The notes: a model not told the origin generated them from the sequence alone. Shown: positions 42-14,535, numbered from the stretch's first letter. The stretch is DNA of 19,958 bases from a candidate division FCPU426 bacterium (GCA_963738405.1 CAVTWJ010000006.1:1-19958), one strand, 5' to 3'. Made by a program: numbers and translations.

Positions 42-1388
42 GTGAAAATTCTACTGGTGGACGATGAAAGACCCATCCTCGCCGTGATGGTGCCCTTTCT
101 GAAGGAGCTCCAGCATGAGGTCCAGACTGCCGCTTCGGTGGCCGAGGGGCTGATCAAGGCGGGCGATTTCAAGCCCGACCTGGTGCTTTTGGATGTCCAC
201 CTTCCGGACGGCACAGGACTGGATTTTCTCAAGCAATTGCCGGCCGTCCGCCCCGGCGCCTCGGTGGTGATGATCACCGCCAATGTGGATGTGAAGGTGG
301 CCGTGGAAGCCATCAAGCGGGGCGCGGAAGATTATCTGGCCAAGCCCCTGGACCTGGAAGAATTGGAAGTGCTTTTAAAGCAAATTGAAGAGCGGCAGGG
401 TTTGAAGAGGGACGTGGCGGCCTTGAAAGACCACCACAAGGATGTCTACCGCAAAGACTACCTTTTTCTTTCCGACCCCGCCATGCAGAAGGTTTACCAG
501 CAGATCGAGCAGGCGGCCCAGCAATCCACGGTGACGGTCTTAATTTTGGGCGACACGGGAACCGGCAAGGAACACGCCGCCAAACTGATCCATGTGCTCT
601 CCAAGCGCACCGCCGCCCCTTTCCTTGAACTTCATTGCGGGGCCATGCCGGAAAATCTTCTGGAGTCCGAACTCTTCGGCTATGAGCCGGGGGCCTTTAC
701 CGACGCGCGCAAATCCAAACCAGGCCTCTTTGAGGTGGCCAACCACGGCACGGTTTTTCTCGATGAAGTGGGGGAACTGCCCCTGACCGTGCAAACCAAG
801 CTGTTAAAGGTCTTGGAGCAAAAGGCGATCCGCCGTCTGGGAGGCCTGCAGGAAATCAAGGTGGATGTGCGGGTCGTGGCCGCCACCAACCGGGATTTGA
901 ACAGGGAAGTGAAAGAAGGCAGGTTTAGGGCCGACCTTTATTACCGCCTCAATGTGGCCAATATCGCCCTTCCGCCCCTGCATTCCCGGCCCAACGATAT
1001 CAGGGGATTGAGCCAGTTCTTTTTCTCTGAAATTTCGCAAGTGTTTGGAAAAAAGTTAAAGCCGTTGAATTCCACGGTGATGGACGCCCTGGTGGCCTAC
1101 CACTGGCCGGGGAATGTGAGGGAACTGAAAAACGTCATTGAAAGGGCCATCCTTTATTGCAAGGGGGACAGCCTGACCGTGAAGGATCTTCCGCCCGAGG
1201 TGCTGGCGCCGCCGCCCGCGGTTTCCGAGGGCCGTTCGGACCGGGCCATGAGCAGGGAAGACGCCGAAAAAGAAAATATCCGCAAGGCCCTTAAGGCTTT
1301 CGAGGGAAACAAAACCCAGACCGCCAAGCACCTGGGCATCAGCCGCACCACCCTGCTGGCCAAGATCAAGCAATACAACTTGGAGTAA
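42..1388 (+). CDS. Sigma54-dependent response regulator (NtrC/AtoC family: receiver, AAA+, Fis-type HTH)
   Basis: Receiver motifs ILLVDDE and DLVLLDVHLPD, Walker A GDTGTGKE, ESELFGYEPGAFTDA, FLDEVGE, FRADLYYRL, WPGNVRELKN, C-terminal HTH GNKTQTAKHLGISRTTL. GTG start. Confidence 0.95.
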   Translation: MKILLVDDERPILAVMVPFLKELQHEVQTAASVAEGLIKAGDFKPDLVLLDVHLPDGTGLDFLKQLPAVRPGASVVMITANVDVKVAVEAIKRGAEDYLAKPLDLEELEVLLKQIEERQGLKRDVAALKDHHKDVYRKDYLFLSDPAMQKVYQQIEQAAQQSTVTVLILGDTGTGKEHAAKLIHVLSKRTAAPFLELHCGAMPENLLESELFGYEPGAFTDARKSKPGLFEVANHGTVFLDEVGELPLTVQTKLLKVLEQKAIRRLGGLQEIKVDVRVVAATNRDLNREVKEGRFRADLYYRLNVANIALPPLHSRPNDIRGLSQFFFSEISQVFGKKLKPLNSTVMDALVAYHWPGNVRELKNVIERAILYCKGDSLTVKDLPPEVLAPPPAVSEGRSDRAMSREDAEKENIRKALKAFEGNKTQTAKHLGISRTTLLAKIKQYNLE

Positions 1389-1401: not shown

Positions 1402-1431
1402 TTGTCCAATGCGGGTCCCCGCCGTGGACAA
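1402..1431. repeat. Cassette-boundary palindromic site 1
   Basis: ttgtccaatgc-gggtcccc-gccgtggacaa; 1 bp from the stop codon of the 1433-1888 gene. Confidence 0.95.
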
Positions 1432-1432
1432 C

Positions 1433-1888
1433 CTACCCGGCTTGTTCGTAGTTCAAATCAACTTTGGCGTCCAAACGGCTAGCGGTCGCAATATAAGGTT
1501 CGCCGTTCTGGATAAACCCCGTGAAATCAATTAACGCTTTAGGACTAGCACACCATTTATGACCCTTCCTAAGTTCGCGCAGTTTCTCATCGGGGATAAA
1601 CTTGAAATCGAGATGAAGTTGCCAGATATCATCATCTTCACCTCCGCCTGTTATTAGTTGCCGGGCGATATCCAATTCAAAATGTTCGCCCTTGCCCCAA
1701 TTGTAGGTGCCCCATTGAAAAAGAAGTTGGTCCTGGCCCTCGTCATTACATCCATCAGCGCGTATTGTCCCATAAAACGAAAGCATGGCATCGATGCCTG
1801 CTGAAGTGATAAGTCGTTCAAAATTAAGTCCCCGGTTTATTAGATAATCTTCAAATTCTTTTTTTGCATTTTCCGGCTTCATTTTCAC
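1433..1888 (-). CDS. Hypothetical protein, cassette 1
   Basis: 151-aa ORF filling the space between sites 1 and 2. Start is GTG 1888 or ATG 1882. Family not recognised. Confidence 0.8.
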   Translation of the reverse strand: MKMKPENAKKEFEDYLINRGLNFERLITSAGIDAMLSFYGTIRADGCNDEGQDQLLFQWGTYNWGKGEHFELDIARQLITGGGEDDDIWQLHLDFKFIPDEKLRELRKGHKWCASPKALIDFTGFIQNGEPYIATASRLDAKVDLNYEQAG

Positions 1889-1896
1889 CCTTTATC

Positions 1897-1926
1897 TTGT
1901 TCACGATGGGTCCCCATCGTGGACAA
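1897..1926. repeat. Cassette-boundary palindromic site 2
   Basis: ttgttcacgat-gggtcccc-atcgtggacaa. Confidence 0.95.
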
Positions 1927-1928
1927 CC

Positions 1929-2357
1929 TTATTTCGTGCCTTTGATCACTTTCGTGATTTTAACGGTATCGACACAAACGAATTGCATCACACCTTTTTT
2001 GAAAGGAGTGATGGGATAAACTGTAAATGTTCCATAGACCTCAACATTCAAATCGTCCTTTAAAATTATTGATAAGTTTTCAGGAATAGGGCAACCATCT
2101 CGGACACCCACTATACGGTGGGTGCCAATCATCCAAATTTTGAGGGAAGTTAGATTTCCGTTCAGATAACTTGCCCGGCCCTTAAAAGTAAAACTCTTCC
2201 CAACAATTCGCGGGTCGTCGTGGCAGGGGCCTTTGAAATCCATATAAGGGTCCACGGTGGGCGTCGCGGTCATTTGATCAGCAAGAAGGGTTTGTCTAAT
2301 CGACATTCCCGATAAGAAAATAAGTAACAATGAAAGTTTAAATAAATTCTTGGTCAT
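1929..2357 (-). CDS. Hypothetical exported protein, cassette 2
   Basis: 142 aa with a signal-peptide-like N-terminus (MTKNLFKLSLLLIFLSG); fills the interval between sites 2 and 3. Confidence 0.8.
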   Translation of the reverse strand: MTKNLFKLSLLLIFLSGMSIRQTLLADQMTATPTVDPYMDFKGPCHDDPRIVGKSFTFKGRASYLNGNLTSLKIWMIGTHRIVGVRDGCPIPENLSIILKDDLNVEVYGTFTVYPITPFKKGVMQFVCVDTVKITKVIKGTK

Positions 2358-2378
2358 CAGATTCGCCTCACTTTTACC

Positions 2379-2408
2379 CTGTCCACGAAGGGTCCCCGTC
2401 GTGGACAG
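2379..2408. repeat. Cassette-boundary palindromic site 3
   Basis: ctgtccacgaa-gggtcccc-gtcgtggacag. Confidence 0.95.
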
Positions 2409-2435
2409 AACTAAACCAAGTTGTTCTCTTTGGAC

Positions 2436-3212
2436 CTATTCTCCCACAAGAAATTTCCGTCTTTTTTTGATATCCATTTTAAGCAAATAATCCAAAGCAC
2501 CCTTATTCGGCATTAGTTCTTTACCCGCTGCCAGGGCGATCGAATCATCGAATGTTAAAAGGTATTCTGCAAACAACAATCTTTCCGCTTTAGGTCTTTG
2601 ACGACAACTTGAAATAATTGCTTGAATGGCTGGCTTGTAATTAAGGTGAACCAATCCTTTTGCAGAAATAGATGCGACCTCCCCATTGGGGGACTTCAGC
2701 CCCTTCAAAAAAAGCGGAACATTGTCCAAATCCTTCATCATGGCGAAATATGTCAAATTTATCGGGCCTTCCTGGTAACCGACAATTAATTCTGCCTTCC
2801 AATCCAGCCCGCGATCCGAACACCACGTCAGGAATTCTTTAGATTGAGTATTGGGAATAAATTTACCGTTTTTATCGTAAACAGTAGGGTCGGGCATATC
2901 GCTGTCGATCAAAGGCTCAACCAAGGAAAGCAAATACTGTTTGTATTGGGGATCTTTATCTTTCAACAAAATCAATTCATAGGCGATCGCGCTTTTCTCC
3001 ATTTTGTGAAGTGTCTTTGTATTCTCATCAAGACCTGGTTGTTTCAATGAATCCGAGGCCTTTCGATATGCCTCTTCAAACTCCGGAATGGATTTAGTGC
3101 TTTTCTGCTGTTTCTCTTGCACCGGTGTAGGAGTAGGGTTATCACACCAACCCCAGATGGCAAAAGCATGAACTCCAAACAAGACGATAAATATCTTCAA
3201 ACAGATTTTCAT
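2436..3212 (-). CDS. Hypothetical exported, helical (possibly HEAT-repeat) protein, cassette 3
   Basis: Likely start is ATG 3212 (MKICLKIFIVLFGVHAFA, signal-like); the ORF-track extension to 3275 runs through site 4. HEAT-like segment VPLFLKGLKSPNGEVASISAKGLVHL. Confidence 0.75.
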   Translation of the reverse strand: MKICLKIFIVLFGVHAFAIWGWCDNPTPTPVQEKQQKSTKSIPEFEEAYRKASDSLKQPGLDENTKTLHKMEKSAIAYELILLKDKDPQYKQYLLSLVEPLIDSDMPDPTVYDKNGKFIPNTQSKEFLTWCSDRGLDWKAELIVGYQEGPINLTYFAMMKDLDNVPLFLKGLKSPNGEVASISAKGLVHLNYKPAIQAIISSCRQRPKAERLLFAEYLLTFDDSIALAAGKELMPNKGALDYLLKMDIKKRRKFLVGE

Positions 3213-3234
3213 CCACTTACCTTTCCACAATCGC

Positions 3235-3264
3235 CTGTCCACTACGGGTCCCCGTCGTGGACAA
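3235..3264. repeat. Cassette-boundary palindromic site 4
   Basis: ctgtccactac-gggtcccc-gtcgtggacaa. Confidence 0.95.
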
Positions 3265-3313
3265 ACCAAAATCATTGTTTTGTACTTTGCGGTTTTAATT
3301 TCTACTTTCCTGG

Positions 3314-3730
3314 TTATTTCTTAAGAAGGGATTCTAAATTAGGTGCCTCGCCCTCATATAACCCATCGATAGGATTGTAGTCACCGGACCTTTTTCTGTG
3401 TTTCTCTATAGCGTTTTTCCCATTTTCATCCAATTCTTTCCACAAACTTCTAATGCTGCAAACATGCCAATGCCGAAGAGTCTCTCCTTTATCAAAATCA
3501 TGCAGCTTCTTCCAATCAATTTCAGACAGATCCCATTTCCCTGAATAAGGGAACCCTAGATAGGGTTCATAAGGCGAGGTGCACCATAATTCATTGCAAA
3601 CAGAACATTTAGTAAGATAGATGTAATTGCCAACAATAACTTTTGTTAACTTGGGTAGCTTAGCTACAGGCATCGGTGGCCAAAGTCGTCGGCTGGGTGA
3701 CTGACATTCAGAACATTTTTCAGTATTCAA
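3314..3730 (-). CDS. Hypothetical protein with two CxxC motifs, cassette 4
   Basis: 138 aa, CSEC and CSVC motifs, TTG start preceded by a GGAG ribosome-binding site. Confidence 0.75.
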   Translation of the reverse strand: MNTEKCSECQSPSRRLWPPMPVAKLPKLTKVIVGNYIYLTKCSVCNELWCTSPYEPYLGFPYSGKWDLSEIDWKKLHDFDKGETLRHWHVCSIRSLWKELDENGKNAIEKHRKRSGDYNPIDGLYEGEAPNLESLLKK

Positions 3731-3755
3731 AAATCACTCCATAATTCTATTTTGC

Positions 3756-3785
3756 TTGTCCAATCCGGGCCCCCGTCGTGGACAA
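3756..3785. repeat. Cassette-boundary palindromic site 5
   Basis: ttgtccaatcc-gggccccc-gtcgtggacaa (one substitution in the core). Confidence 0.95.
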
Positions 3786-3787
3786 CC

Positions 3788-4222
3788 TTAATTGCTTGGG
3801 TGGATGGAACGAACATGTCGGACGTAGCTTTCTACTTCCAATTTTCCATGGGCGGCAATTCTGTCCATGTCCGCATCAGCGTGGACCAAGGTGAGATGAT
3901 GTTTGTGCGCTTTATAGGCAATCAGGGCATCAACCGTCTTCAGCTTGTGCCCTTTTTGGCGGTGCGCCCTCGTCCACTCAGCGGCTTCCGCCCATTCATG
4001 GGGTAATAAAGGAAAAGGGTGAAGGGCGGATAAATGAGCCGCCAAGAGGGCCGAATGGGCCTGGCTTTTTTCGGAGGAAACAAGCTCGAAGAAGATCGGA
4101 GAGGTGATGGCCGCCAGGTTATTTTCCACCAGTTCCTCCACCCTTGCGCGTATAACCTCCACGGGCCGGGGGCCCAGGGCGAAAATCCACGCGGAACTGT
4201 CGATCAAGTAAAGTTGATTCAA
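3788..4222 (-). CDS. vapC: PIN-domain toxin (VapC family)
   Basis: YLIDSSAWI, ELV, TVDALIA and LVHADADM are the PIN acidic motifs; overlaps the upstream antitoxin stop (ATGA). Confidence 0.9.
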   Translation of the reverse strand: MNQLYLIDSSAWIFALGPRPVEVIRARVEELVENNLAAITSPIFFELVSSEKSQAHSALLAAHLSALHPFPLLPHEWAEAAEWTRAHRQKGHKLKTVDALIAYKAHKHHLTLVHADADMDRIAAHGKLEVESYVRHVRSIHPSN

Positions 4223-4416
4223 CCCCTGGACTTTTTCAGCGATTTGAGCGGAAGATCAAGACGGAACTTGTCGAAATCCTTCACGAAACTTTTTCTTTGA
4301 ATATCGGCCAATAAGTTTCGCAAGCCGGTTTCCAGGACTTCCCGTTGGGAAACAATGCCCGTTTTCCGCTTTGCGCGTTTTAAGAGTTCTTCATCAATAT
4401 GGGTTGTGATTTTCAT
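4219..4416 (-). CDS. vapB: VapB-family antitoxin
   Basis: MKITTHIDEELLKRAKRKTGIVSQREVLETGLRNL; ATG 4416 with a GGAGGA RBS; translationally coupled to vapC. Confidence 0.85.
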   Translation of the reverse strand: MKITTHIDEELLKRAKRKTGIVSQREVLETGLRNLLADIQRKSFVKDFDKFRLDLPLKSLKKSRG

Positions 4417-4512
4417 TTCATCCTCCAAAGGTATGGCACTACTTACCATACTTATATCAAAACCAGGTCCCCAAGCCAATTGGGCGAAATATCGGAACTA
4501 ACCCTATTTGCC

Positions 4513-4542
4513 TTGTCCAATCCGGGTCCCCGTCGTGGACAA
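4513..4542. repeat. Cassette-boundary palindromic site 6
   Basis: ttgtccaatcc-gggtcccc-gtcgtggacaa; identical to site 7. Confidence 0.95.
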
Positions 4543-4599
4543 GCAAAAAACGTCATGTGGATGGTTAACTGGAAACCGCCGGCATTATTTCTAACGTGA

Positions 4600-5001
4600 T
4601 TAATCCAAGAAGTCATGGATGCTTAGTGCCGATTTCCCAGATGCTTTTCTCAAAGCTTTGTCTTCAGTTACCAACGGGACGTCCAGCATTTGGGCCAAGG
4701 CTAGGTAGTGGGCGTCGTAATAGCTTATTTTCTTTTCGGTCGAAAGTTGAAGCGCCAAGTCCGGATCGGACGGGATTTCACCCGGACTAAAAACCCCTTT
4801 AGCCGTTTGAAATAAATGAGCGGCCATCTTTGACGTGATATGTTTCTGGTGGATCATCAAGACCAAGGCATTGCCAAACTCATATTCCCAAAGCGGAGAT
4901 GTCCGCCAGTCCGGATCTTTTTCCTGCAAGCGTAATGCCGCCGCCGTCATCTCCCCTTCCACGATCCGGTAAACCAGAATATTGGCGTCCACCACGATCA
5001 T
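4600..5001 (-). CDS. vapC: PIN-domain toxin (VapC family)
   Basis: MIVVDANIL, YEFGNAL, SYYDAHYLALA, PLVTEDKAL; ATG 5001 overlaps the antitoxin TGA. Confidence 0.9.
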   Translation of the reverse strand: MIVVDANILVYRIVEGEMTAAALRLQEKDPDWRTSPLWEYEFGNALVLMIHQKHITSKMAAHLFQTAKGVFSPGEIPSDPDLALQLSTEKKISYYDAHYLALAQMLDVPLVTEDKALRKASGKSALSIHDFLD

Positions 5002-5216
5002 TGACGGCCCCAACGCTTTGCTTTATCGAGCCATTCATTGGTCGGCCGGAATTTCAATTTTACCGGAGTAGGGAGCCGGCCAATACCCGGCCTTTCCAAT
5101 GCCTGCTCCAGAATGGAGACCACTTGTTTGTTCATGGAGCGGTGATTGAGTTCGGCTTGCTCCTTCAATTTTTTTCGGATTTTTTCCGGAATGTTTTTAA
5201 TCAACAGGCTGGACAC
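4998..5216 (-). CDS. FitA/Arc-like ribbon-helix-helix antitoxin
   Basis: (M)SSLLIKNIPEKIRKKLKEQAELNHRSMNKQVVSILEQAL; GTG 5216 with an AGGGAGGT RBS. Confidence 0.85.
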   Translation of the reverse strand: MSSLLIKNIPEKIRKKLKEQAELNHRSMNKQVVSILEQALERPGIGRLPTPVKLKFRPTNEWLDKAKRWGRQ

Positions 5217-5280
5217 AAGGACCTCCCTAACAAAGGATATCAAAAAGATACCGTTATGATACCGTTTTGTCAATTGAGCC

Positions 5281-5310
5281 TTGTCCAATCCGGGTCCCCG
5301 TCGTGGACAA
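5281..5310. repeat. Cassette-boundary palindromic site 7
   Basis: ttgtccaatcc-gggtcccc-gtcgtggacaa. Confidence 0.95.
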
Positions 5311-5317
5311 GAATTTT

Positions 5318-5749
5318 TCAATTTTTAGCCATGCCGTGCCAATTCTCCATCTTCAGTTGATCGAAATGACGGTAATTCCGGATGTTGTTGGTGACCAGGA
5401 TCAAATCATGGACTTTCGCGATGGAAGCAATCTGCCCATCCGCGAATGCCGGTGTAAGTCCCAGCCTGGATAAACGGGCACGCTCCCGGCCGTGCCAAGC
5501 AGCCGCTTCCGTGTCATAAGGAAAAATTAACATGGAGGAGTTTGCTAATTCCGAAAGGAATTCCTCTAAAAGGGTCCGTTTTTCGGAGGGTGGCAAGCGG
5601 TCGCAGCCGAAGACGAGTTCATGCCAAACAATACTTGCGATTCCCATTTCGTCTTTGTGCCGCTCAAGTTTTCTCATCACATTGGGATTTGGTTTTACAC
5701 GGGCTGCTTCCGAAACGACATTGGTGTCTAACAAGTACCGGGGCTTCAC
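5318..5749 (-). CDS. vapC: PIN-domain toxin (VapC/FitB family)
   Basis: YLLDTNVVSE, VWHELVFG, ADGQIASIA, LVTNNIRNY; GTG start at 5749 (GTGA overlap) or 5752. Confidence 0.92.
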   Translation of the reverse strand: MKPRYLLDTNVVSEAARVKPNPNVMRKLERHKDEMGIASIVWHELVFGCDRLPPSEKRTLLEEFLSELANSSMLIFPYDTEAAAWHGRERARLSRLGLTPAFADGQIASIAKVHDLILVTNNIRNYRHFDQLKMENWHGMAKN

Positions 5750-6027
5750 CACTTAAATTCTCTTCCGGGTCCGGTTTCGCGGATTCCCCGGAGATCTTTA
5801 GGTTCCAAACCGGCCTTACTGGCTTTGATACGGCCGTGGAAGGCCGAAACAACCTCCCAAAACCCGGGACGGGGTGCGGTCAAATGCCGGTAGGCATCCA
5901 CCGATACCAAGACGGCAACCGGTTTCCCTCGCCGGGTTATCTCCACCGGCTTCCCTTTTTCCGCATCGTGGATGAGCCCGGGAAAATGGATTCGGGCCTG
6001 TGCAATGGTAAAGCTAGTTGGTGTCAC
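5746..6027 (-). CDS. Phd/YefM-family antitoxin
   Basis: TIAQARIHFPGLIHDAEKGKPVEITRRGKPVAVLVS signature; GTG 6027 after AAGGAG. Confidence 0.92.
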   Translation of the reverse strand: MTPTSFTIAQARIHFPGLIHDAEKGKPVEITRRGKPVAVLVSVDAYRHLTAPRPGFWEVVSAFHGRIKASKAGLEPKDLRGIRETGPGREFKW

Positions 6028-6108
6028 GAGCAACTCCTTATGTACATGATGATGTACATTTTATGCCCAAAGTTTCTCCGTGGCAAGTACTGATTATTGC
6101 TTTCTTAG

Positions 6109-6138
6109 GTGTCCACGATGGGTCCCCGCCGTGGACAA
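6109..6138. repeat. Cassette-boundary palindromic site 8
   Basis: gtgtccacgat-gggtcccc-gccgtggacaa. Confidence 0.95.
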
Positions 6139-6147
6139 GGTTTTTAA

Positions 6148-6492
6148 CTATTCGAATAATATAATTTTAAGGTTTTCGATCAACTTCACCTTATCGATCG
6201 GGTTTAACTCCCCCAAATGCTTGACGAACCGGCGGTTATCAATGGCCCGGATCTGATCAACCAAAATATCGGAGTCTTTCTTGAGGCTGGTTCCCTTTTT
6301 GGAAAGGTGAACCCGGAGTATCTCCGCTTCGCGAATGACGTGGGTGGTAACGGGACAAACAATAGTGCTGGGGTGTTGACTATCGTTTAAAAGGTTGGTT
6401 TGGAGAACGACGACCGGCCTTTTCTTGCCCGGCTCCGTCCCGAACCGAGGGCTTAGATCGGCCAGGTAGATATTAAATTTCCTGATTTTCAT
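6148..6492 (-). CDS. mazF: MazF/PemK-family toxin
   Basis: IYLADLSPRFGTEPGKKRPVVVLQ and DQIRAIDNRRF. Confidence 0.93.
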   Translation of the reverse strand: MKIRKFNIYLADLSPRFGTEPGKKRPVVVLQTNLLNDSQHPSTIVCPVTTHVIREAEILRVHLSKKGTSLKKDSDILVDQIRAIDNRRFVKHLGELNPIDKVKLIENLKIILFE

Positions 6493-6728
6493 TCAAGGGT
6501 TGCTTCTTCAAGTTTTTCCATCTCACTCAGGATATCCATGGAATTATTTCGCGTTAGCAGGGATTCTTTTTTTAATATTTGACGAAGTCCTTTGCGCCGG
6601 TTGAAAGCGTTATAAAAATCCAACGCCTCATTGATGTAGGTGTTTCGGGGCATATGAAGACGCTTGGTTTGGACTTCCACGTCCTCGAAAATCTCGTCTT
6701 TAATTTTAAGGGAAAGCACTTTGGTCAT
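6489..6728 (-). CDS. Putative ribbon-helix-helix antitoxin of MazF
   Basis: 79 aa, VLSLKIKDEIFEDVE...PRNTYINEALDFY RHH-like pattern, ATGA overlap with mazF, AAGGAG RBS. Confidence 0.8.
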   Translation of the reverse strand: MTKVLSLKIKDEIFEDVEVQTKRLHMPRNTYINEALDFYNAFNRRKGLRQILKKESLLTRNNSMDILSEMEKLEEATLE

Positions 6729-6851
6729 TTCGGGCTCCTTTGGGGGTATATACGAATAGTATATCCCTTCAAAGACCTTCTTTCGAACCCCTTCGCTTCA
6801 TTCACTCAATCGGGCTGGATCAATTGTTGTTTTAGCGGTAAAATAATTTAC

Positions 6852-7247
6852 ATGAAATTAACAAGCCGAACCAAGCCGTTCCTGATCGTTTTGATCGCCG
6901 CCCTGCTCCTGGTGGGGAGCGCGGGAGCCGCCTATTACGTTAAAAAAGGCGGGCAGCCGAATGACATCACCCTGCGCGCGGCCCGTCTTCAAAAAACCGA
7001 ATTGGACTTGGAATTCCTAAAGTCCGATCTGTCACGGCTTCAGCAAAGTTTGGAGGCCCAGCCCCAGGGCCGGATCTTATCGGATGAAACCCAGATCTTG
7101 CGGGAACGGATCAGCGGTGAACAAGCCGGCATCGAAACCGAACTGATGCGAATCACGGAGGATGCGGGGTATTTGCGCAGGCACTGGGCCGCCCTGACCC
7201 CTTCGCAAAAGGATTTGGTGGATTCGGTTCAGAAAAACCTTACCTAG
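6852..7247 (+). CDS. Hypothetical membrane-anchored coiled-coil protein
   Basis: ATG 6852, N-terminal hydrophobic stretch FLIVLIAALLLVGSAGAAYYV followed by a heptad-rich helix; only plus-strand gene within the array. Confidence 0.7.
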   Translation: MKLTSRTKPFLIVLIAALLLVGSAGAAYYVKKGGQPNDITLRAARLQKTELDLEFLKSDLSRLQQSLEAQPQGRILSDETQILRERISGEQAGIETELMRITEDAGYLRRHWAALTPSQKDLVDSVQKNLT

Positions 7248-7327
7248 TTCCCCGTCGTTTCATTCCTAGAAAATCCCCCAGGTTGATCAAAGTCTCCCCA
7301 TTGCTGCGATTCGCGAACCCTCGAATT

Positions 7328-7738
7328 CTAAGATTCTTTCTTGAGCGCGGGGTAAGGATATTTCAGCAGCCAGTCGAGGGCTTCCTGAAAATTCGTGAAG
7401 ACCCCGACGGGCATTCCCCGATTGGTCGCCACCACTTCGCCGAATTTTACGGGGTCCATCAGGGGAGGGTTCGCCACCACGGAGAACCGGCACTTTAGAA
7501 TTTCCCCTTTCGCCAAGGCGGTATGATATTTTTCAGCCCCGGCGGTCCCCATCGTGAAGCGCTGCAGGGTGGTGAGATTTCCCTCGGCCTTGCGAAGATC
7601 CGCCAGGACCCTGGTGTATTGATGGGCGCGGGCCGCCTCAATGAGCAGTTCCGGAAATTGGGTGGGGAAGAGTTCTTCCACGGCACCTTCAAAGGTCATG
7701 TGGAGGTAATTGGGTTTGATCTCGGTGGTTAGGTTCAC
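7328..7738 (-). CDS. SpoIIAA/STAS-SEC14-like hypothetical protein
   Basis: YLHMTFEG, RVLADLR and C-terminal FTNFQEALDWL are typical of this family. Confidence 0.65.
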   Translation of the reverse strand: MNLTTEIKPNYLHMTFEGAVEELFPTQFPELLIEAARAHQYTRVLADLRKAEGNLTTLQRFTMGTAGAEKYHTALAKGEILKCRFSVVANPPLMDPVKFGEVVATNRGMPVGVFTNFQEALDWLLKYPYPALKKES

Positions 7739-7766
7739 GGTGGGGAATATTAACTATTTTCTACTC

Positions 7767-7796
7767 AAAAACAAGGCCCTGGCCAGGGGCCTTTTT
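7767..7796. terminator. Possible bidirectional intrinsic terminator
   Basis: aaaaac-aaggccc-tggccag-gggcctt-ttt: GC-rich stem flanked by A and T runs. Confidence 0.5.
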
Positions 7797-7852
7797 GGGG
7801 GGCAACTCCAGCCGCTGAATAGGCCGGACCCCAACGTTCATGGAAATATGAC

Positions 7853-7906
7853 CTGTCCAATCTCACTGCACCAAGCCGGGGGCTTGGTGCTCCCCGTTGT
7901 GGACAG
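7853..7906. repeat. Expanded/degenerate cassette site 9 with an internal hairpin
   Basis: ctgtccaatc...tccccgttgtggacag with gcaccaagcc-ggg-ggcttggtgc (7868-7890) in the middle. Confidence 0.8.
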
Positions 7907-7911
7907 CAAAC

Positions 7912-8313
7912 CTAAAAAGTTTTCAAAAAGCTGGATGGATTCAGGATTTAAATATTTTGGTAGGTTCCGACATCCAACAGGGCCTTATCGCCCGAGACAA
8001 TGAATTCAGCTCCTCCCGCCAGGGCGGCTGCGATAAATTTATCATCATCGGGGTCCTTGCAAATGCCTCGAACAGGCTTAGCGTTCACCATTTCGCAATT
8101 CAATCTGATTAATTCCAGGAAGGGCTCAACTTCGACTCCAGGATGCCCCTTGGAAAAGTCTTCCATAACGCGGCGGTATTCTTCGAGAATTTCCAGGGAC
8201 ACCAATAACTTGAAATCACCACGTTCCCAAGATTTGAGGACTTGGTAAGGTGTCCCCATCCAGAAAAAACCAGAGACAAGAACATTTGTGTCTATGACAA
8301 CAACCCGTTTCAT
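7912..8313 (-). pseudogene. PIN-family toxin with a premature TAA at 7948-7950
   Basis: VVIDTNVLVS, CKDPDDDKFI, IVSGDKALL. The frame continues past the TAA as ILNPSSFLKTF to TAG at 7912, the C-terminal motif usual for this family. Confidence 0.75.
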
Positions 8314-8570
8314 TTACCGCGTCGAACGCGGGCAATGGCGGCCTTCACGTCTGATGGGCGTAATCCGGCGGCACGCGCCTGCTTTCGCGCGGCGGCCAGC
8401 AGGCTGCCAAGTTGGCTCAACGAAGGCGGGGTAATGGCTTTGAAAATCACCGAATCTCCCTGGCCCATCACGACAAACTGATCCCCCTCTTTGAGGCGCA
8501 AACTCTTGCGGATGGATTCGGGAATAACGACCTGTCCCTTCGAGGAAAGCTTTGTGGTTGCGATGGTCAT
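8310..8570 (-). CDS. AbrB/MazE/SpoVT-family antitoxin
   Basis: TTKLSSKGQVVIPESIRKSLRLKEGD signature; ATGA overlap with the PIN gene. Confidence 0.93.
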   Translation of the reverse strand: MTIATTKLSSKGQVVIPESIRKSLRLKEGDQFVVMGQGDSVIFKAITPPSLSQLGSLLAAARKQARAAGLRPSDVKAAIARVRRGK

Positions 8571-8634
8571 AGGTTACCTCCGAGTAATCTTACCAGTAAG
8601 AATACAACCGAAATCTAATCAATACAATCCACCG

Positions 8635-8852
8635 CTCACTCCAATGCTTTTATGGGACTGGGATCATCAGGGCGCAGATGCGCAAATGCCTATATAAGCA
8701 TTTGCACCGCCAAAACTCACACGCCAATGCTTTTTATGGCATTGGGGTTATCAAAGCGTGCGCCTTAGCTTGAGGCTAAGGCGCAGATGCACAAATGCCT
8801 TCATTGGCATTTGCATTGCCAAGACTCACACCCTAACTGGAAGTTAGGGTGT
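8635..8852. repeat. Intergenic cluster of direct and inverted repeats
   Basis: C(C/A)AATGC-N8-GCATT(G/T)G at 8683, 8724 and 8792, degenerate copy at 8641; duplicated ggcgcagatgc..aaatgcc...gcatttgca..gccaa.actcacac block; hairpins at 8759-8785 and 8828-8852. Confidence 0.85.
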
Positions 8853-10916
8853 AGGCACCCTTTCCACCCGGGTCACCTGTGGGCCTTGCGCACCTTCATG
8901 CACCCAAACCTTCAAGTCGATCGGCTGGGTGGAAACAACTTCCCCCGGGTAATGCTGGTCGCTTTTAGTGATCACCACACCCTCTATCAAAAACTGGTCC
9001 GAAGCGCCGTCGGTGCCCACCCATTGAGGAGGCTGGGTGGGTTTGAAGTAAGCCACCCATTTTTTGTCTTGGATTTCCTGAATCTTGGCGGGGGGGTAGT
9101 TTTCGTAGAAGAACTGGGCCTGGTAGCCATCAACGATTTCGCTTTTCAGGTTCGCCAGCCAGGTCGGGATGTCGTGGTAGCTGGGGCCGAAAGCATCGTC
9201 GGCGAAGATTTTTAGGAACATCTGGTACGCGGTGACCTTGGCTTGATCCTTGGGGGAAAGGGTGGGGGCCGCCTGGGTCGAGCCTTCAAGGCGAGACCCA
9301 AGACTTGGCTGTGCCGATTCCTTAGGGGAACCGGCCGCCTGGGTCGAGCCTTCAAGGCGAGACCCAAGACTTGGCTGTGCCGATTCCTTAGGGGAACCGG
9401 CCGCCTGGGTCGAGCCTTCAAGGCGAGACCCAAGACTTGGCTGTGCCGATTCCTTAGGGGAATCGGCCGCGGCGGGCGTAGGCGCGGGTTTCTCGCTGAC
9501 CACGACCGTGGCGGTATGTTTTGAAGTTTTCAAAGCGGCTCGTTTAGGCTCGATCTTCTTCACAACCGTTGCGAGAGTTGTTACCGCCATGGTTTGCGGG
9601 GCCTGATCGGCCTTGGGGGCCGAGGGGGCTGGTTTACTCCAAGAGGGAATAAACCCTTTAAGCCGGGCAACCAGATCGCCCGGATGAAACACATAAGTCC
9701 AAATAAGCCAAACCACCAACAGTATCGCCCCTACCCGGAGGAACCATATCACCACCGGCCCCAAGACCTTTTTCAAGCCGCTCCAGAGAAGATGGCCCAG
9801 GGCCGCGGCTTGTTTTTTCATTTCCTTGAAAACCCACCCGACCATGTGCCAGAAGAGCTTCCAGAGGGTCACAAGGGTCTTCCATAGGATTTGCCCCACC
9901 GCCTCCCAGGGGTTCTTGGCCAGCTTGCCAAAGATGGCCTTAACCCCCGCCCCCTCAAAGCCTTGCCAGACCTGTTTAAGGTCTTCCCCAAGAGTGGCTT
10001 GGGTCTTAGCTGTCTTGCTAGGGTTATGCCTTGTAGTGTGCTCAGCGGGCTCTACTTTAGGGTCTGCCGGTCCCTCGGCTTGCGTATCTATAGCGGGGGA
10101 CGAACCCTGCGTTTGGGCCACCTGCCCAGTCACGGCGGGTTGCTGCGGAACAACCGCCTTGGCGTGGGGGTTGTAGCTTTCGGGCTCATTGCCATCCTTA
10201 ACCCATTTGACCAGGCCTTTGGTTTCAGGCTCGGTTAGGTACTCATCGAAGACCTTCCGTAGGGCCCTTTCGACCTTGGCCGGGTCCCCAAGGTCGGCTA
10301 ATACCAGGAGGATGGACTCAGTTATCAAAAAACCCTTATTTTTCGTGCCCAGCGGCTGGGCATCCGAAATAAGGCCTTTTTGAAGATTTTCATCCACCAA
10401 GGCTCGGGAGGCTTGGTTGAGGGCTTTTGTAATCTTAAGGGCGTTATAAACTTTAGAGTCGGACACACCTTCCCAATCCGCCAATTCCCTTTGGGTCATA
10501 TTCGGTTGGTCTTCATGGTCAATGGCTATAGCCACATCCCAATCCCACCAGTCCATATCCTCATGCAGGTTGTCCAGAACGGCCTCATGGTGGGTCTCCC
10601 TTGGTTGGATATCATCCACGATGCATTTCAGGGTCTTCCATTGGTTAAGGATCGCCGCCGCCCGTCTTCGGTGACCGCCTATGTGCATGACCCAGTTACC
10701 GGGGTTGGCCGCCCGCTCTTCGTCCGTAAGGGGCCGAACCCTAACCGGGGTTCTCTGCCCCTTGGCTTTCATGGAAGCCGCCAGTTCCTGGATGGTTTCC
10801 TTCTTTTTGGACCGTCGGGGCTGTTTGGGGTTTTCGAGGATCTGGTCGATGGGGATTTCGACGACCTGGCCGATGGGATAGGGAAAGTCTGCTGGGACGG
10901 ACATAGGGACCTCCAA
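8844..10916 (-). CDS. ParB-like N-terminal domain fused to membrane segment(s), a low-complexity linker and a C-terminal domain
   Basis: IPIDQILENPKQPRR, IQELAASMKAKGQRTPVRVR, GGHRRRAAA (ParB CTP-binding motif), HTH MTQRELADWEGVSDSKVYNAL, hydrophobic VVIWFLRVGAILLVVWLIWTYVF. Confidence 0.85.
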   Translation of the reverse strand: MEVPMSVPADFPYPIGQVVEIPIDQILENPKQPRRSKKKETIQELAASMKAKGQRTPVRVRPLTDEERAANPGNWVMHIGGHRRRAAAILNQWKTLKCIVDDIQPRETHHEAVLDNLHEDMDWWDWDVAIAIDHEDQPNMTQRELADWEGVSDSKVYNALKITKALNQASRALVDENLQKGLISDAQPLGTKNKGFLITESILLVLADLGDPAKVERALRKVFDEYLTEPETKGLVKWVKDGNEPESYNPHAKAVVPQQPAVTGQVAQTQGSSPAIDTQAEGPADPKVEPAEHTTRHNPSKTAKTQATLGEDLKQVWQGFEGAGVKAIFGKLAKNPWEAVGQILWKTLVTLWKLFWHMVGWVFKEMKKQAAALGHLLWSGLKKVLGPVVIWFLRVGAILLVVWLIWTYVFHPGDLVARLKGFIPSWSKPAPSAPKADQAPQTMAVTTLATVVKKIEPKRAALKTSKHTATVVVSEKPAPTPAAADSPKESAQPSLGSRLEGSTQAAGSPKESAQPSLGSRLEGSTQAAGSPKESAQPSLGSRLEGSTQAAPTLSPKDQAKVTAYQMFLKIFADDAFGPSYHDIPTWLANLKSEIVDGYQAQFFYENYPPAKIQEIQDKKWVAYFKPTQPPQWVGTDGASDQFLIEGVVITKSDQHYPGEVVSTQPIDLKVWVHEGAQGPQVTRVERVPTP
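9267..9470. repeat. Three 66-bp tandem repeats within the ParB-like gene
   Basis: Units start at 9267, 9333 and 9399 and encode SPKESAQPSLGSRLEGSTQAAG. Confidence 0.97.
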
Positions 10917-12877: not shown

Positions 12878-13339
12878 ATGCCCGTTACCGCCAAAGCCAA
12901 AGCCGTACCCACCCTCTACCGCATCACCCCCGCGAAGAGGCTGCGCATTCCCCTTTACCTCACCCGGGTCTCGGCGGGCTCCTTTTCGCCCGCGGATGAT
13001 TACGTGGAAAAGGGGTTGGATATGAACGAACACCTCATCCAGCACCCAGCCGCCACCTTCGCCTTTCATGTGTCCGGAGATTCCATGGTGGGGGCGGGCA
13101 TCTTCCCCGGCGATCTTTTGATTGTGGACCGGGCGGTGAAGCCAGTCAGCGGGTCGGTGGTGGTGGCCAAGCTGGGGGGCGACCTGGTGTGCAAGCGCCT
13201 GAAGCTTGTGAAGGGAAAGGTCTTTCTGGCGCCCGAAAACCCGGCCTACAAGACCATCGAAGTGATCGATGACATGGAAGGTTTTGAAATCTGCGGGGTG
13301 CTGTTGCACAACATCCATTCGCATGGGGTGAAGAAGTAA
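12878..13339 (+). CDS. umuD: UmuD/LexA-family S24 autopeptidase (Pol V accessory subunit)
   Basis: VSAGSFSPADDYVE cleavage region, VSGDSM catalytic Ser, VCKRL catalytic Lys; TAATG coupling to umuC. Confidence 0.92.
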   Translation: MPVTAKAKAVPTLYRITPAKRLRIPLYLTRVSAGSFSPADDYVEKGLDMNEHLIQHPAATFAFHVSGDSMVGAGIFPGDLLIVDRAVKPVSGSVVVAKLGGDLVCKRLKLVKGKVFLAPENPAYKTIEVIDDMEGFEICGVLLHNIHSHGVKK

Positions 13340-14535
13340 TGGGTGCCGTTCAGCCAATAGCACTAATCGACTGCAATAATTTTTATTGCAGTTGCGAGCG
13401 GGTGTTTAACCCCAAGCTCACGGGCAAGCCCGTTATCGTCCTTTCCAACAACGACGGCATGCCCATTTCCCGATCCGAAGAGGCCAAGGCCGTCGGCATC
13501 GAAATGGCCAAGCCCTTCTTTGAGCTGAAAGACATCATCGAAAAACACAAGGTTCATGTTTTCAGTTCCAACTACACCCTCTATGGCGATTTTTCACGGC
13601 GGGTCATGCAAACCATCCGCCAGTTCAGCCCGATGGTTGAAGAATATTCCATCGACGAGGCCTTTGTAGGCCTGCAAGGCTTCGCCCATCGCGACCTTAC
13701 CGAATACGGCAGAGAAATGAAGGCCACCATTTACCAGTGGACGGGCATTCCGGTTTCGGTCGGCATCGCCCAAGACCAAGGCCTTTTTTACCTCGACCAA
13801 AAAATCGGCGAGCTTTACCCCGACGCCCGAAAAAGCGCCGGGTGGGACCCCCCAAAAGACGCTATCACCATCGGCATGCTTTTATCCATGACTTCCGGTT
13901 TGGACTGCAATGATATGGGAATCGGAAACCAAAATTGCGGGGCGGTGATGGGCCAATCTTCCAACTGGGTTTCCTTTGCCTTGGGGCTTCCCATGGCCCA
14001 TCCGCCCGGAACGGTTTGGACCTACAACGGATGCTGTTTGACCCTTCTTTCCCACGCCATCGCCGAAAAAACGGGGATGCGTTTTGCCGATTACGCCAAC
14101 CAATACCTTCTGCAGCCCTTGGGGATCAAAAATAACACCTGGGTCACCGGGCCCAACGGCGACAACCGGGTGGATTACGGCCTTTACTGGACATCCCGGG
14201 ATATGGCCAAGCTGGGACAGCTTTATTTGAACCAGGGCCTGTGGGAAGGCAAGCGCGTCGTTTCGGCGGACTGGGTGAAAGACGCCACGGCCGTTCACGC
14301 ACCCAGGGGCCAGGCTTTCGGCCACGATTACGGCTACCTGTGGCACATCAAAACCATGCTTTGGAAAAACCGCCCGATCCGGGTGTTTTTCGCCAACGGC
14401 TACATGGGCCAGGAAATTTACGTGTCCCCCGACGCGGATTTGGTTTGCGTGATGACGGCGGCCAGCTCCAGCGCTTTGATTTATTCGATGGAAGATCATT
14501 TTTTGGAGAACGTGATATTGGATTCGATTCAATAG
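13339..14535 (+). pseudogene. umuC: Chimeric ORF: N-terminal UmuC (Y-family polymerase) fragment fused in frame to a C-terminal beta-lactamase-family serine hydrolase fragment
   Basis: ALIDCNNFYCSCER, VLSNNDG, YSIDEAF up to TGIPVSVGIA (about 13770), then DQGL...ITIGMLLSMTSGL, PGTVWTYN, SRDMAKLGQLYL, YGYLW, ANGYMGQ. UmuC C-terminal domains and the hydrolase SxxK motif are absent. Confidence 0.85.

Follow-up and report, generated by a model that had tools for sequence, protein, structure and literature searches.

A cassette array delimited by a short palindromic site in a candidate division FCPU426 bacterium, and a candidate serine recombinase for it

The window, meaning throughout the whole stretch of 19,958 nucleotides analysed (GCA_963738405.1 CAVTWJ010000006.1:1-19958, from a candidate division FCPU426 bacterium), carries, next to a host response regulator gene, a series of small genes and toxin-antitoxin (TA) pairs separated from one another by copies of a 30-bp palindromic site. 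A reading made from the sequence alone (the sequence-only reading) had proposed that 1402..8600 is an integron-like array of gene cassettes with a recombination site of its own. The array, the site and a candidate recombinase in related genomes are the subject here. The genome that holds the window, 90.7% complete, is designated G000; other G numbers are genomes of relatives, and L numbers are their array or recombinase loci. The features of the array and its margins are as follows (ORF, open reading frame; PWM, position weight matrix).

42..1388, plus strand: NtrC-type sigma-54 response regulator (Pfam), a host gene convergent on the array end and outside the system
1402..1431, plus strand: site 1, two 14-bp arms around a central TC (motif match and PWM)
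1433..1888, minus strand: cassette 1, orphan gene, probable ATG at 1882, 44.5% GC, without Pfam, NCBIfam or PADLOC match or a usable Atlas match
1897..1926, plus strand: site 2 (motif match and PWM)
1929..2357, minus strand: cassette 2, orphan gene (ORF) with hydrophobic N-terminus, no Pfam match
2379..2408, plus strand: site 3 (motif match and PWM)
2436..3212, minus strand: cassette 3, orphan gene, probable ATG at 3212, 41% GC, no Pfam or NCBIfam match
3235..3264, plus strand: site 4 (motif match and PWM)
3314..3730, minus strand: cassette 4, orphan gene, 39% GC, no Pfam or NCBIfam match
3756..3785, plus strand: site 5, with CC in place of TC at its centre (motif match)
3788..4479, minus strand: cassette 5, VapB-VapC (PIN) TA pair (Pfam, NCBIfam)
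4513..4542, plus strand: site 6 (motif match and PWM)
4600..5270, minus strand: cassette 6, FitA-like ribbon-helix-helix antitoxin and PIN toxin (Pfam)
5281..5310, plus strand: site 7 (motif match and PWM)
5318..6033, minus strand: cassette 7, Phd/YefM antitoxin and VapC (Pfam)
6109..6138, plus strand: site 8 (motif match and PWM)
6148..6728, minus strand: cassette 8, PemK/MazF toxin and 79-aa antitoxin, MazEF-like (Pfam)
6849..7247, plus strand: ORF of unknown function, in opposite orientation and without a site, no Pfam match
7328..7738, minus strand: ORF of unknown function, no Pfam match; its homologue in G004 also has a long-form site on the start side
7853..7906, plus strand: long-form site of 54 bp, comprising outer left arm, a 24-bp longer hairpin-containing stretch, TC and right arm
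7948..8570, minus strand: cassette 9, AbrB/MazE-type antitoxin and PIN_3 toxin (Pfam)

All eight 30-bp copies named in the sequence-only reading, with starts at 1402, 1897, 2379, 3235, 3756, 4513, 5281 and 6109, were recovered, as was the expanded copy at 7853-7906. The spacings from start to start (495, 482, 856, 521, 757, 768 and 828 bp) and, from the ORF ends, the distances of stop codons to the site (1, 2, 27, 49, 2, 57, 7 and 9 bp) agree with those first given, and each of the seven intervals does hold one minus-strand gene or one TA pair. Within 1402..8600, the stretch 6139-7852 is not a single cassette, since it contains the MazEF-like pair, the plus-strand ORF, which is probably a later insertion, and a further minus-strand ORF. 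The site expected upstream of cassette 8 near 6800 is missing in the window and present in 9 of 13 homologues; a paralogue of this cassette, 86% identical, on C2 of G000 has both sites. Pertinent also are contigs assembled from sequencing runs, X1 and X3, in which related organisms have small shares: an X1 contig has a site 36 bases past the position equivalent to 6764, where the window has none. Cassette 9 likewise lacks its upstream site in the window and has two bounding sites in G004, with a second copy, 94-96% identical, on C4 of G000.

The genes in intervals 1-4 are all orphans, none with a match in Pfam, NCBIfam or PADLOC, and have 39-45% GC as against 52% for the genome; PADLOC matched 0 of 12 window proteins. 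Cassette 1 has a ribosome-binding site and little space for a promoter. The cassette 2 homologue in G001, 70% identical, has sites on both sides, and cassette 5 has six homologues, five with a site at the stop side and four with one at the start side. Site 5, with its CC centre, would be predicted to be a poor partner for sites with TC.

Cassettes recur in different company. Window 5281-6138 is 99.2% identical over 858 bp to a stretch in G004, a member of another genus, where identity ends at the sites and the neighbours differ, and an X3 contig tracks window 5634-6138 with one difference and diverges right after 6138. For a wider view 551 sites were assembled from G000 and 100 array loci of 10 relatives (a later set has 681). 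Among the 378 intervals there are 85 full-length homologous cassette pairs, and of the pairs listed several are 100% identical though in different arrays. Adjacent sites are co-oriented in 386 of 393 cases and the median array period is 821 bp; the largest ORF is directed to the site in 348 of 378 intervals, with the stop codon at most 60 bp from it in 295 of 358. Gene order is not fixed: a comparison of cassette order, suggested in the sequence-only reading as a check, found that it differs between relatives, with other neighbours and the same cassettes in different arrays. Homologues of the cargo are usually bounded by the site, 25 of 36 homologues of window modules having it at the stop side and 20 of 36 at the start side, proportions that are inflated as the loci were mostly fetched because they bear sites. 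Sequence comparison places the ends of a cassette at the centres of two successive 30-bp sites, between which there is one gene or TA pair with its stop codon beside the right arm. That this is a real mobile cassette array is close to certain, and the mobile cassettes and site-bounded homologues support the original proposal of a separate cassette system with its own recombination site.

The cargo was sampled by drawing 80 ORFs at random from 449 cassette ORFs; 17 were of TA type and 40 had no Pfam match. A gene for an HflX-like GTPase also travels as a cassette (L008:6001-7317, L004:2223-3539, L131, L146), being about 90% identical in three genomes and present twice in G000. A gene for a Shedu (SduA) C-terminal domain is cassette cargo at L207:3328-3846, which hints at anti-phage cargo.

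The site is not local to the window. PWM scores of the window sites are 43-50 bits, and shuffling the genome three times left 1, 0 and 1 matches above 14 bits, the best of 14.9, so chance is excluded; a scan of G000 yields 56 matches, of which the strongest 54 fall into 20 clusters adjoining unrelated genes. The full site pattern is present in 21 of 24 genomes of the family, in the one other genome from the order, and in 0 of 15 others; for a 15-base half-site the corresponding numbers are 29 of 30, 1 of 1 and 2 of 67. The motif is thus nearly confined to one bacterial family. There are 0 exact matches to the site pattern in viral contigs, and an Rfam scan returned one match, at the level of chance only. 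No site follows the NtrC orthologue (72-77% identical) in any of the five relatives' loci that have it. In some clusters cassettes lie within host operons and in the same direction, for instance between hemB and an aminotransferase gene. This co-direction makes it probable that expression is from host or TA promoters, and a promoter scan gave no matches above those in shuffled sequence. Cargo is on the G-rich strand in 18 of 20 G000 clusters, compared with 68.5% of long ORFs (binomial p about 0.03), possibly a bias of replication direction. ParB-like genes lie at most 3 kb from a site at 4 of about 10 loci (G000 C23:8188, C14:60065, C23:284129 and the window), the queries having been picked beside sites; 5.6% of G000 lies within 3.5 kb of a site.

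A site found genome-wide, some copies of which follow housekeeping genes such as hemB, could also be a palindrome like the repetitive extragenic palindromic (REP) elements or one that binds protein, whether as an mRNA hairpin or a ParB-like site, and that spreads alone while cassettes are exchanged by homologous recombination or insertion sequences (IS). The nearby ParB-like genes and three Y1 transposases in G000 would fit with this. It was a concern of the sequence-only reading too, and the part of it concerning genome-wide occurrence is borne out; the copies, however, cluster around accessory genes. Direct orientation is strict, exchange points fall inside a 30-bp site, short for RecA, which uses 30-bp homology poorly, and there is no Y1 transposase within 50 kb of a site. 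A terminator scan gave 8 matches against 10.2 expected by chance, with just one of eight sites flagged as terminator-like, and that on the non-coding strand. With in addition the tight link, described below, of the site to the 3′ end of a recombinase gene, this is the least probable of the explanations considered here.

The site is palindromic save for its central TC, a dinucleotide shared by 643 of 681 sites; among the 551, conservation is 97-99% at positions 15-19 and each arm is the inverse of the other. Where exchange occurs was approached with pairs of sites sharing one flank at 96% identity or more, pairs abutting IS being removed. Where the left flank is shared, 16 of 17 pairs agree throughout positions 1-14, as against 1 of 16 where the right flank is shared; throughout positions 22-30 agreement is seen in 16 of 16 pairs with the right flank in common and in 5 of 17 with the left. 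The left arm of a shared cassette goes with the left flank, and its outer right arm with the right. This linkage places exchange between positions 14 and 22. A different type of evidence comes from half-sites that have only the right part, 37 of which were selected on positions 18-29 alone. Ten were set aside as reversed or as interrupted by an intron or insert; of the other 27, T15 is retained by 24, C16 by 23 and G14 by only 11 (24, 25 and 14 of 37 when none is dropped). The step at T15, taken with the symmetry, points to crossover at the central TC. The 11-8-11 parse initially proposed is therefore probably wrong, as crossover and half-site data fit a 2-bp centre and the enzyme linked to the site is a serine recombinase; the site probably reads better as 14-2-14, of serine type. 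No distinct arm class at array ends, of the kind attI would represent, was seen, as the first, middle and last sites have similar mean arm scores, although sites behind the recombinase often have a variant left arm.

Several kinds of insert into or against the site occur. Long-form sites (window 7853-7906; G000 C13:8276 and C4:19513; L134, L156, L169, L216) are 23-25 bp longer to the left of TC and often share one hairpin; several genomes have them, with flanks that differ. A second hairpin insert, in the right arm, is present in L146 and L156. Group II introns are inserted in the site after position 18 and before position 19 (L142, L150, L163, L166, L191), with their reverse transcriptase gene co-directed with cargo; the group II introns termed IIC-attC lie opposite to the direction of cargo genes. 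IS ends directly abut the outer edge of 28 of 551 sites (arrays of G001, G044, G021, G020, G003 and G008), and the site-targeting IS is an IS1380 by its transposase in L175 (L175:6201-7580).

The sequence-only reading had the recombinase encoded elsewhere or lost. G000 indeed lacks an intact copy of what relatives have linked to the site, a short serine recombinase with PF00239 and PF07508 above cut-off and no PF13408 zinc ribbon. The linked enzyme is of serine and not of tyrosine type. Its 19 clusters of 275-283 aa, 68-96% identical, form one clade with SH-aLRT (approximate likelihood ratio test) support of 100 in a quick tree, and all 19 proteins have invariant YxRVS and DRLYR motifs (Y16, R18, S20, D89-R93), the former presumably catalytic. 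A true stop codon ends the reading frame at this length in all 7 loci read. One clade with invariant motifs implies that the truncation is old and conserved. The best fold matches of a structural model are large serine integrases, and the best NCBIfam match of the 277-aa protein (encoded at L050:1465-2298) is CcrB (74 bits against a cut-off of 900), with CcrA at 60 against 700.

Linkage to the site is particular to the short type. Among 30 loci from a protein search, 13 of 13 with the 3′ end of the short enzyme gene are immediately followed by a site, which in one case a group II intron interrupts, compared with 0 of 14 other relatives, the remaining 3 being internal or N-terminal fragments. 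The 31 family genomes contain 26 loci with a resolvase domain: at 5 of these the site lies 7-33 bp past the stop, at one it is split by a group II intron, and at 20 there is none. In other collections the site is present at both loci of the short type whose stop is visible (one already counted) and at 0 of 19 longer relatives. Within the phylum close matches to the short recombinase are restricted to this family. G000 retains a remnant of the gene's 3′ end, 142 bp and 77% identical, which runs into the site at C4:54282; no pseudo-site inside the recombinase gene, as a source of remnants, scored. Intact copies are near ArdC and RadC genes in three genomes, and that in G001 is near a gene for a VirB4/TraC-like ATPase; the operon it lies in has neighbouring genes that are met again beside the G024 copy. 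This suggests a carrier resembling an integrative and conjugative element (ICE). Full-length relatives of the short recombinase (L073, L074, L076, L077, L079, L089) end in or beside sequence resembling the 3′ end of a tRNA, and the ancestor of the short form probably integrated at tRNA genes.

The gene family and its linkage to the site are there to be seen in the genomes; catalysis we infer. That a serine recombinase acting at the central dinucleotide moves the cassettes is probable, and the following scheme would account for the observations. The array would be one that has no integrase and belongs to a cassette system of this family of bacteria. Its site would be a double-stranded binding site of two-fold symmetry, in which the asymmetric central TC fixes orientation. 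The enzyme is most likely the 275-283-aa recombinase with catalytic and 'recombinase' domains only, which would derive from a large serine integrase that lost its zinc ribbon and coiled-coil region, and a dimer of which would bind both 13-14-bp arms and cut at TC. The recombinase domain makes contact with 13 bp per half-site (PMC3783163), a match to the arm length. Having no domain that discriminates attP from attB (attachment, or att, sites of phage and bacterium), the enzyme may treat all sites alike and, having no coiled coil to set direction, may release cassettes as circles from between direct repeats of the site, for reinsertion wherever a site is present. It would act in trans from the ICE-like element, whose own attachment site would be that just past the recombinase stop. 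With the intact gene lost or unassembled in G000, the array there is probably frozen. TA pairs, by analogy with integron biology, would oppose cassette deletion, and expression is probably from TA promoters or host transcription with no dedicated cassette promoter (Pc).

A number of observations weigh against this scheme. Positions 19-21 are inherited from either side, right-shared pairs differing at 20 or 21 in 4 of 16 cases and left-shared pairs at 19 or 20 in 4 of 17, and the likelihood for crossover peaks after positions 21-22, where it is 2.4-6 log units above the centre (7-11 in a smaller set). Left-only half-sites are far rarer than right-only ones, which symmetric integration does not predict. 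One pair of arm positions, 10/21, covaries weakly (27 of 1000 shuffles reach the observed value), as one of nine pairs tested. An intact recombinase is present in only 5 of 31 family genomes, yet the motif is in 29 of 30 relatives, and none was found in G000 with either Pfam or tblastn. Genomes so closely related are also non-independent samples. Among the assembled contigs of related organisms that were covered, circular cassettes did not appear. Experience with engineered enzymes is relevant too: a Listeria integrase without its coiled coil promiscuously excised between all site pairs and did not integrate in E. coli, and without its zinc domain bound about 25-fold more weakly (both PMC3783163), while coiled-coil deletion in vitro gave small amounts of product (PMC5499577). 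The natural short enzyme may be adapted to its reduced form, or may depend on a partner.

Another explanation is that a host tyrosine recombinase, XerC/D-like or other, acts on an 11-6-11 or 11-8-11 site and the serine element is a passenger that targets the site. Branch migration could then lie behind the mixed inheritance at positions 19-21. A 28-bp core can be parsed as 11-6-11, G000 has 9 PF00589 matches alongside its lack of an intact serine recombinase, and with IS1380 ends and group II introns also abutting or splitting sites, adjacency alone may mean targeting. Against this, there is no tyrosine recombinase within 40 kb of a site, and recombining partners differ at positions 12-14, within the supposed overlap of tyrosine exchange. 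The centre is the best-conserved part of the site, unlike in dif, for which a variable 6-bp centre between unlike arms is described (PMC6449649). The distance from serine recombinase gene to site is nearly fixed at all 13 loci. A tyrosine enzyme is accordingly considered unlikely, if a shade less so than the other alternatives.

The peak at 21-22 would be accommodated by recombination of a folded single strand, as with attC, with crossover in the outer stem, carried out by some other enzyme or by the serine enzyme acting in an atypical way. Gene-strand sites fold to hairpins of -12 to -19 kcal/mol, the recurring long forms have an extra internal hairpin, cargo lies on the G-rich strand in most clusters, and group II introns target the site. 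Arms that pair should covary, however, and among the 551 sites covariation is absent at 8 of the 9 position pairs tested: for 11/20, 620 of 1000 shuffles reach the observed value, and there are no compensatory changes there or at 9/22 and 8/23. Positions 8-11 are paired in only 50-67% of sites, and covariation between the arms that would meet in a circular cassette is not significant. A conserved hairpin is therefore unlikely, though single strands do fold. Right-only half-sites reach no further than TC, the right flank took a rare position-19 variant with it, and IntI had no match at cut-off, so that exchange through a folded strand appears improbable, by a little more than does the tyrosine enzyme, and a double-stranded reaction of the serine recombinase at TC is preferred.

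An extension of the serine scheme is put forward tentatively, being rather doubtful. A natural serine recombinase devoid of zinc ribbon and coiled coil might run a full analogue of the integron on symmetric 28-30-bp double-stranded sites. It might also make new cassettes through recombination between a true site and loosely matching pseudo-sites next to chromosomal genes, and the many right-only half-sites starting at TC would be the newborn. If true, this would provide a direct route of cassette genesis, which in integrons is unexplained, and the enzyme would be a compact recombinase tool that works in both directions. The integrons and pdif modules in which arrays of single-gene cassettes have been described both depend on tyrosine recombinases; if the serine version of events is correct, the cassette strategy arose anew from unrelated components, together with its TA stabilizers, its orphan arrays and the introns and IS that target its sites. 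The system bears on the loss of directional control by integrases as well as on cassette birth, and with so short a site and a 277-aa enzyme the claim is testable in E. coli. Searches based on attC or dif are blind to this system, whose arrays amount to a pre-cut library of several hundred unknown adaptive genes.

Features elsewhere in the window and G000 deserve brief mention. At 8640-8830, between the last TA pair and the window's ParB-like gene, are short imperfect direct repeats of about 80 bp, and the ParB-like gene itself (8844-10916) encodes a membrane segment and three 23-aa repeats (9250-9470). Downstream of umuD (12878-13339), a umuC-like gene (13339-14535) continues in frame, from about residue 145, into a beta-lactamase-family domain, probably as a deletion join or assembly chimera. 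On another contig of G000 (C22:214284-217263) three or four tyrosine recombinase genes are clustered at the contig end, in what we take to resemble a recombinase-in-trio element.

No description of this cassette system was found in a literature search that covered few subscription journals and no supplements of recombinase surveys. As the system fell outside every known cassette system with which it was compared, it appears to be new in kind, its enzyme being a variant form within the known serine recombinase family. The site is neither attC nor dif, as the sequence-only reading held: no attC core pairs (RYYYAAC...GTTRRRY) are on the gene strand in the 180-210 bp around any of the 9 sites, and a variable centre of dif type is missing. 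A search of G000 for a canonical dif site gave just three loose motif matches. In the same genome, the only one searched for it, the best match to IntI (TIGR02249) scored 43 bits against a cut-off of 265. Tyrosine recombinases, IntI and Y1 transposases were each looked for beside the arrays of G000, and none was there; with regard to REP elements and their associated (RAYT) transposases, each of the three Y1 genes is more than 50 kb from a site.

Acinetobacter pdif modules, served by XerC/XerD, are similar in that 28-bp sites bound small accessory modules including TA pairs, and differ in having a variable 6-bp centre, unlike arms and inverted flanking sites (PMC6449649), whereas here the centre is conserved, the arms alike and the sites direct. 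With the staphylococcal cassette chromosome (SCC, SCCmec) there is in common a serine recombinase (CcrAB/CcrC) that excises neighbouring enzyme-less cassettes at directly repeated att sites; those cassettes are, however, of 17-48 kb and at one locus, the 3′ end of rlmH (PMC11470126), in contrast to a median period of 821 bp at many loci, and the enzyme here is about half the length and without zinc ribbon or coiled coil. The LI/A118, phiC31 and Bxb1 integrases share the catalytic and recombinase domains, an att site right after the gene and an asymmetric 2-bp centre, whereas the distinct 40-50-bp attP and attB of phage large serine integrases are replaced here by like sites of 28-30 bp, with control of direction not obvious. 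Closest in organization are integrons and clusters of attC sites lacking integron-integrases (CALINs), with their tandem, co-oriented and shuffled cassettes of one ORF or TA pair and mostly unknown cargo, and also with enzyme-less clusters and sites struck by group II introns and IS (PMC8618304, PMC3001079). In place of IntI and attC there is a short, sequence-conserved site of fixed length without covariation, where crossover appears to be near the centre and not at the end, and a linked serine recombinase whose gene converges on the array; a Pc is not in evidence, and G000 has about 20 arrays. The array behaves like a CALIN but is not an integron.

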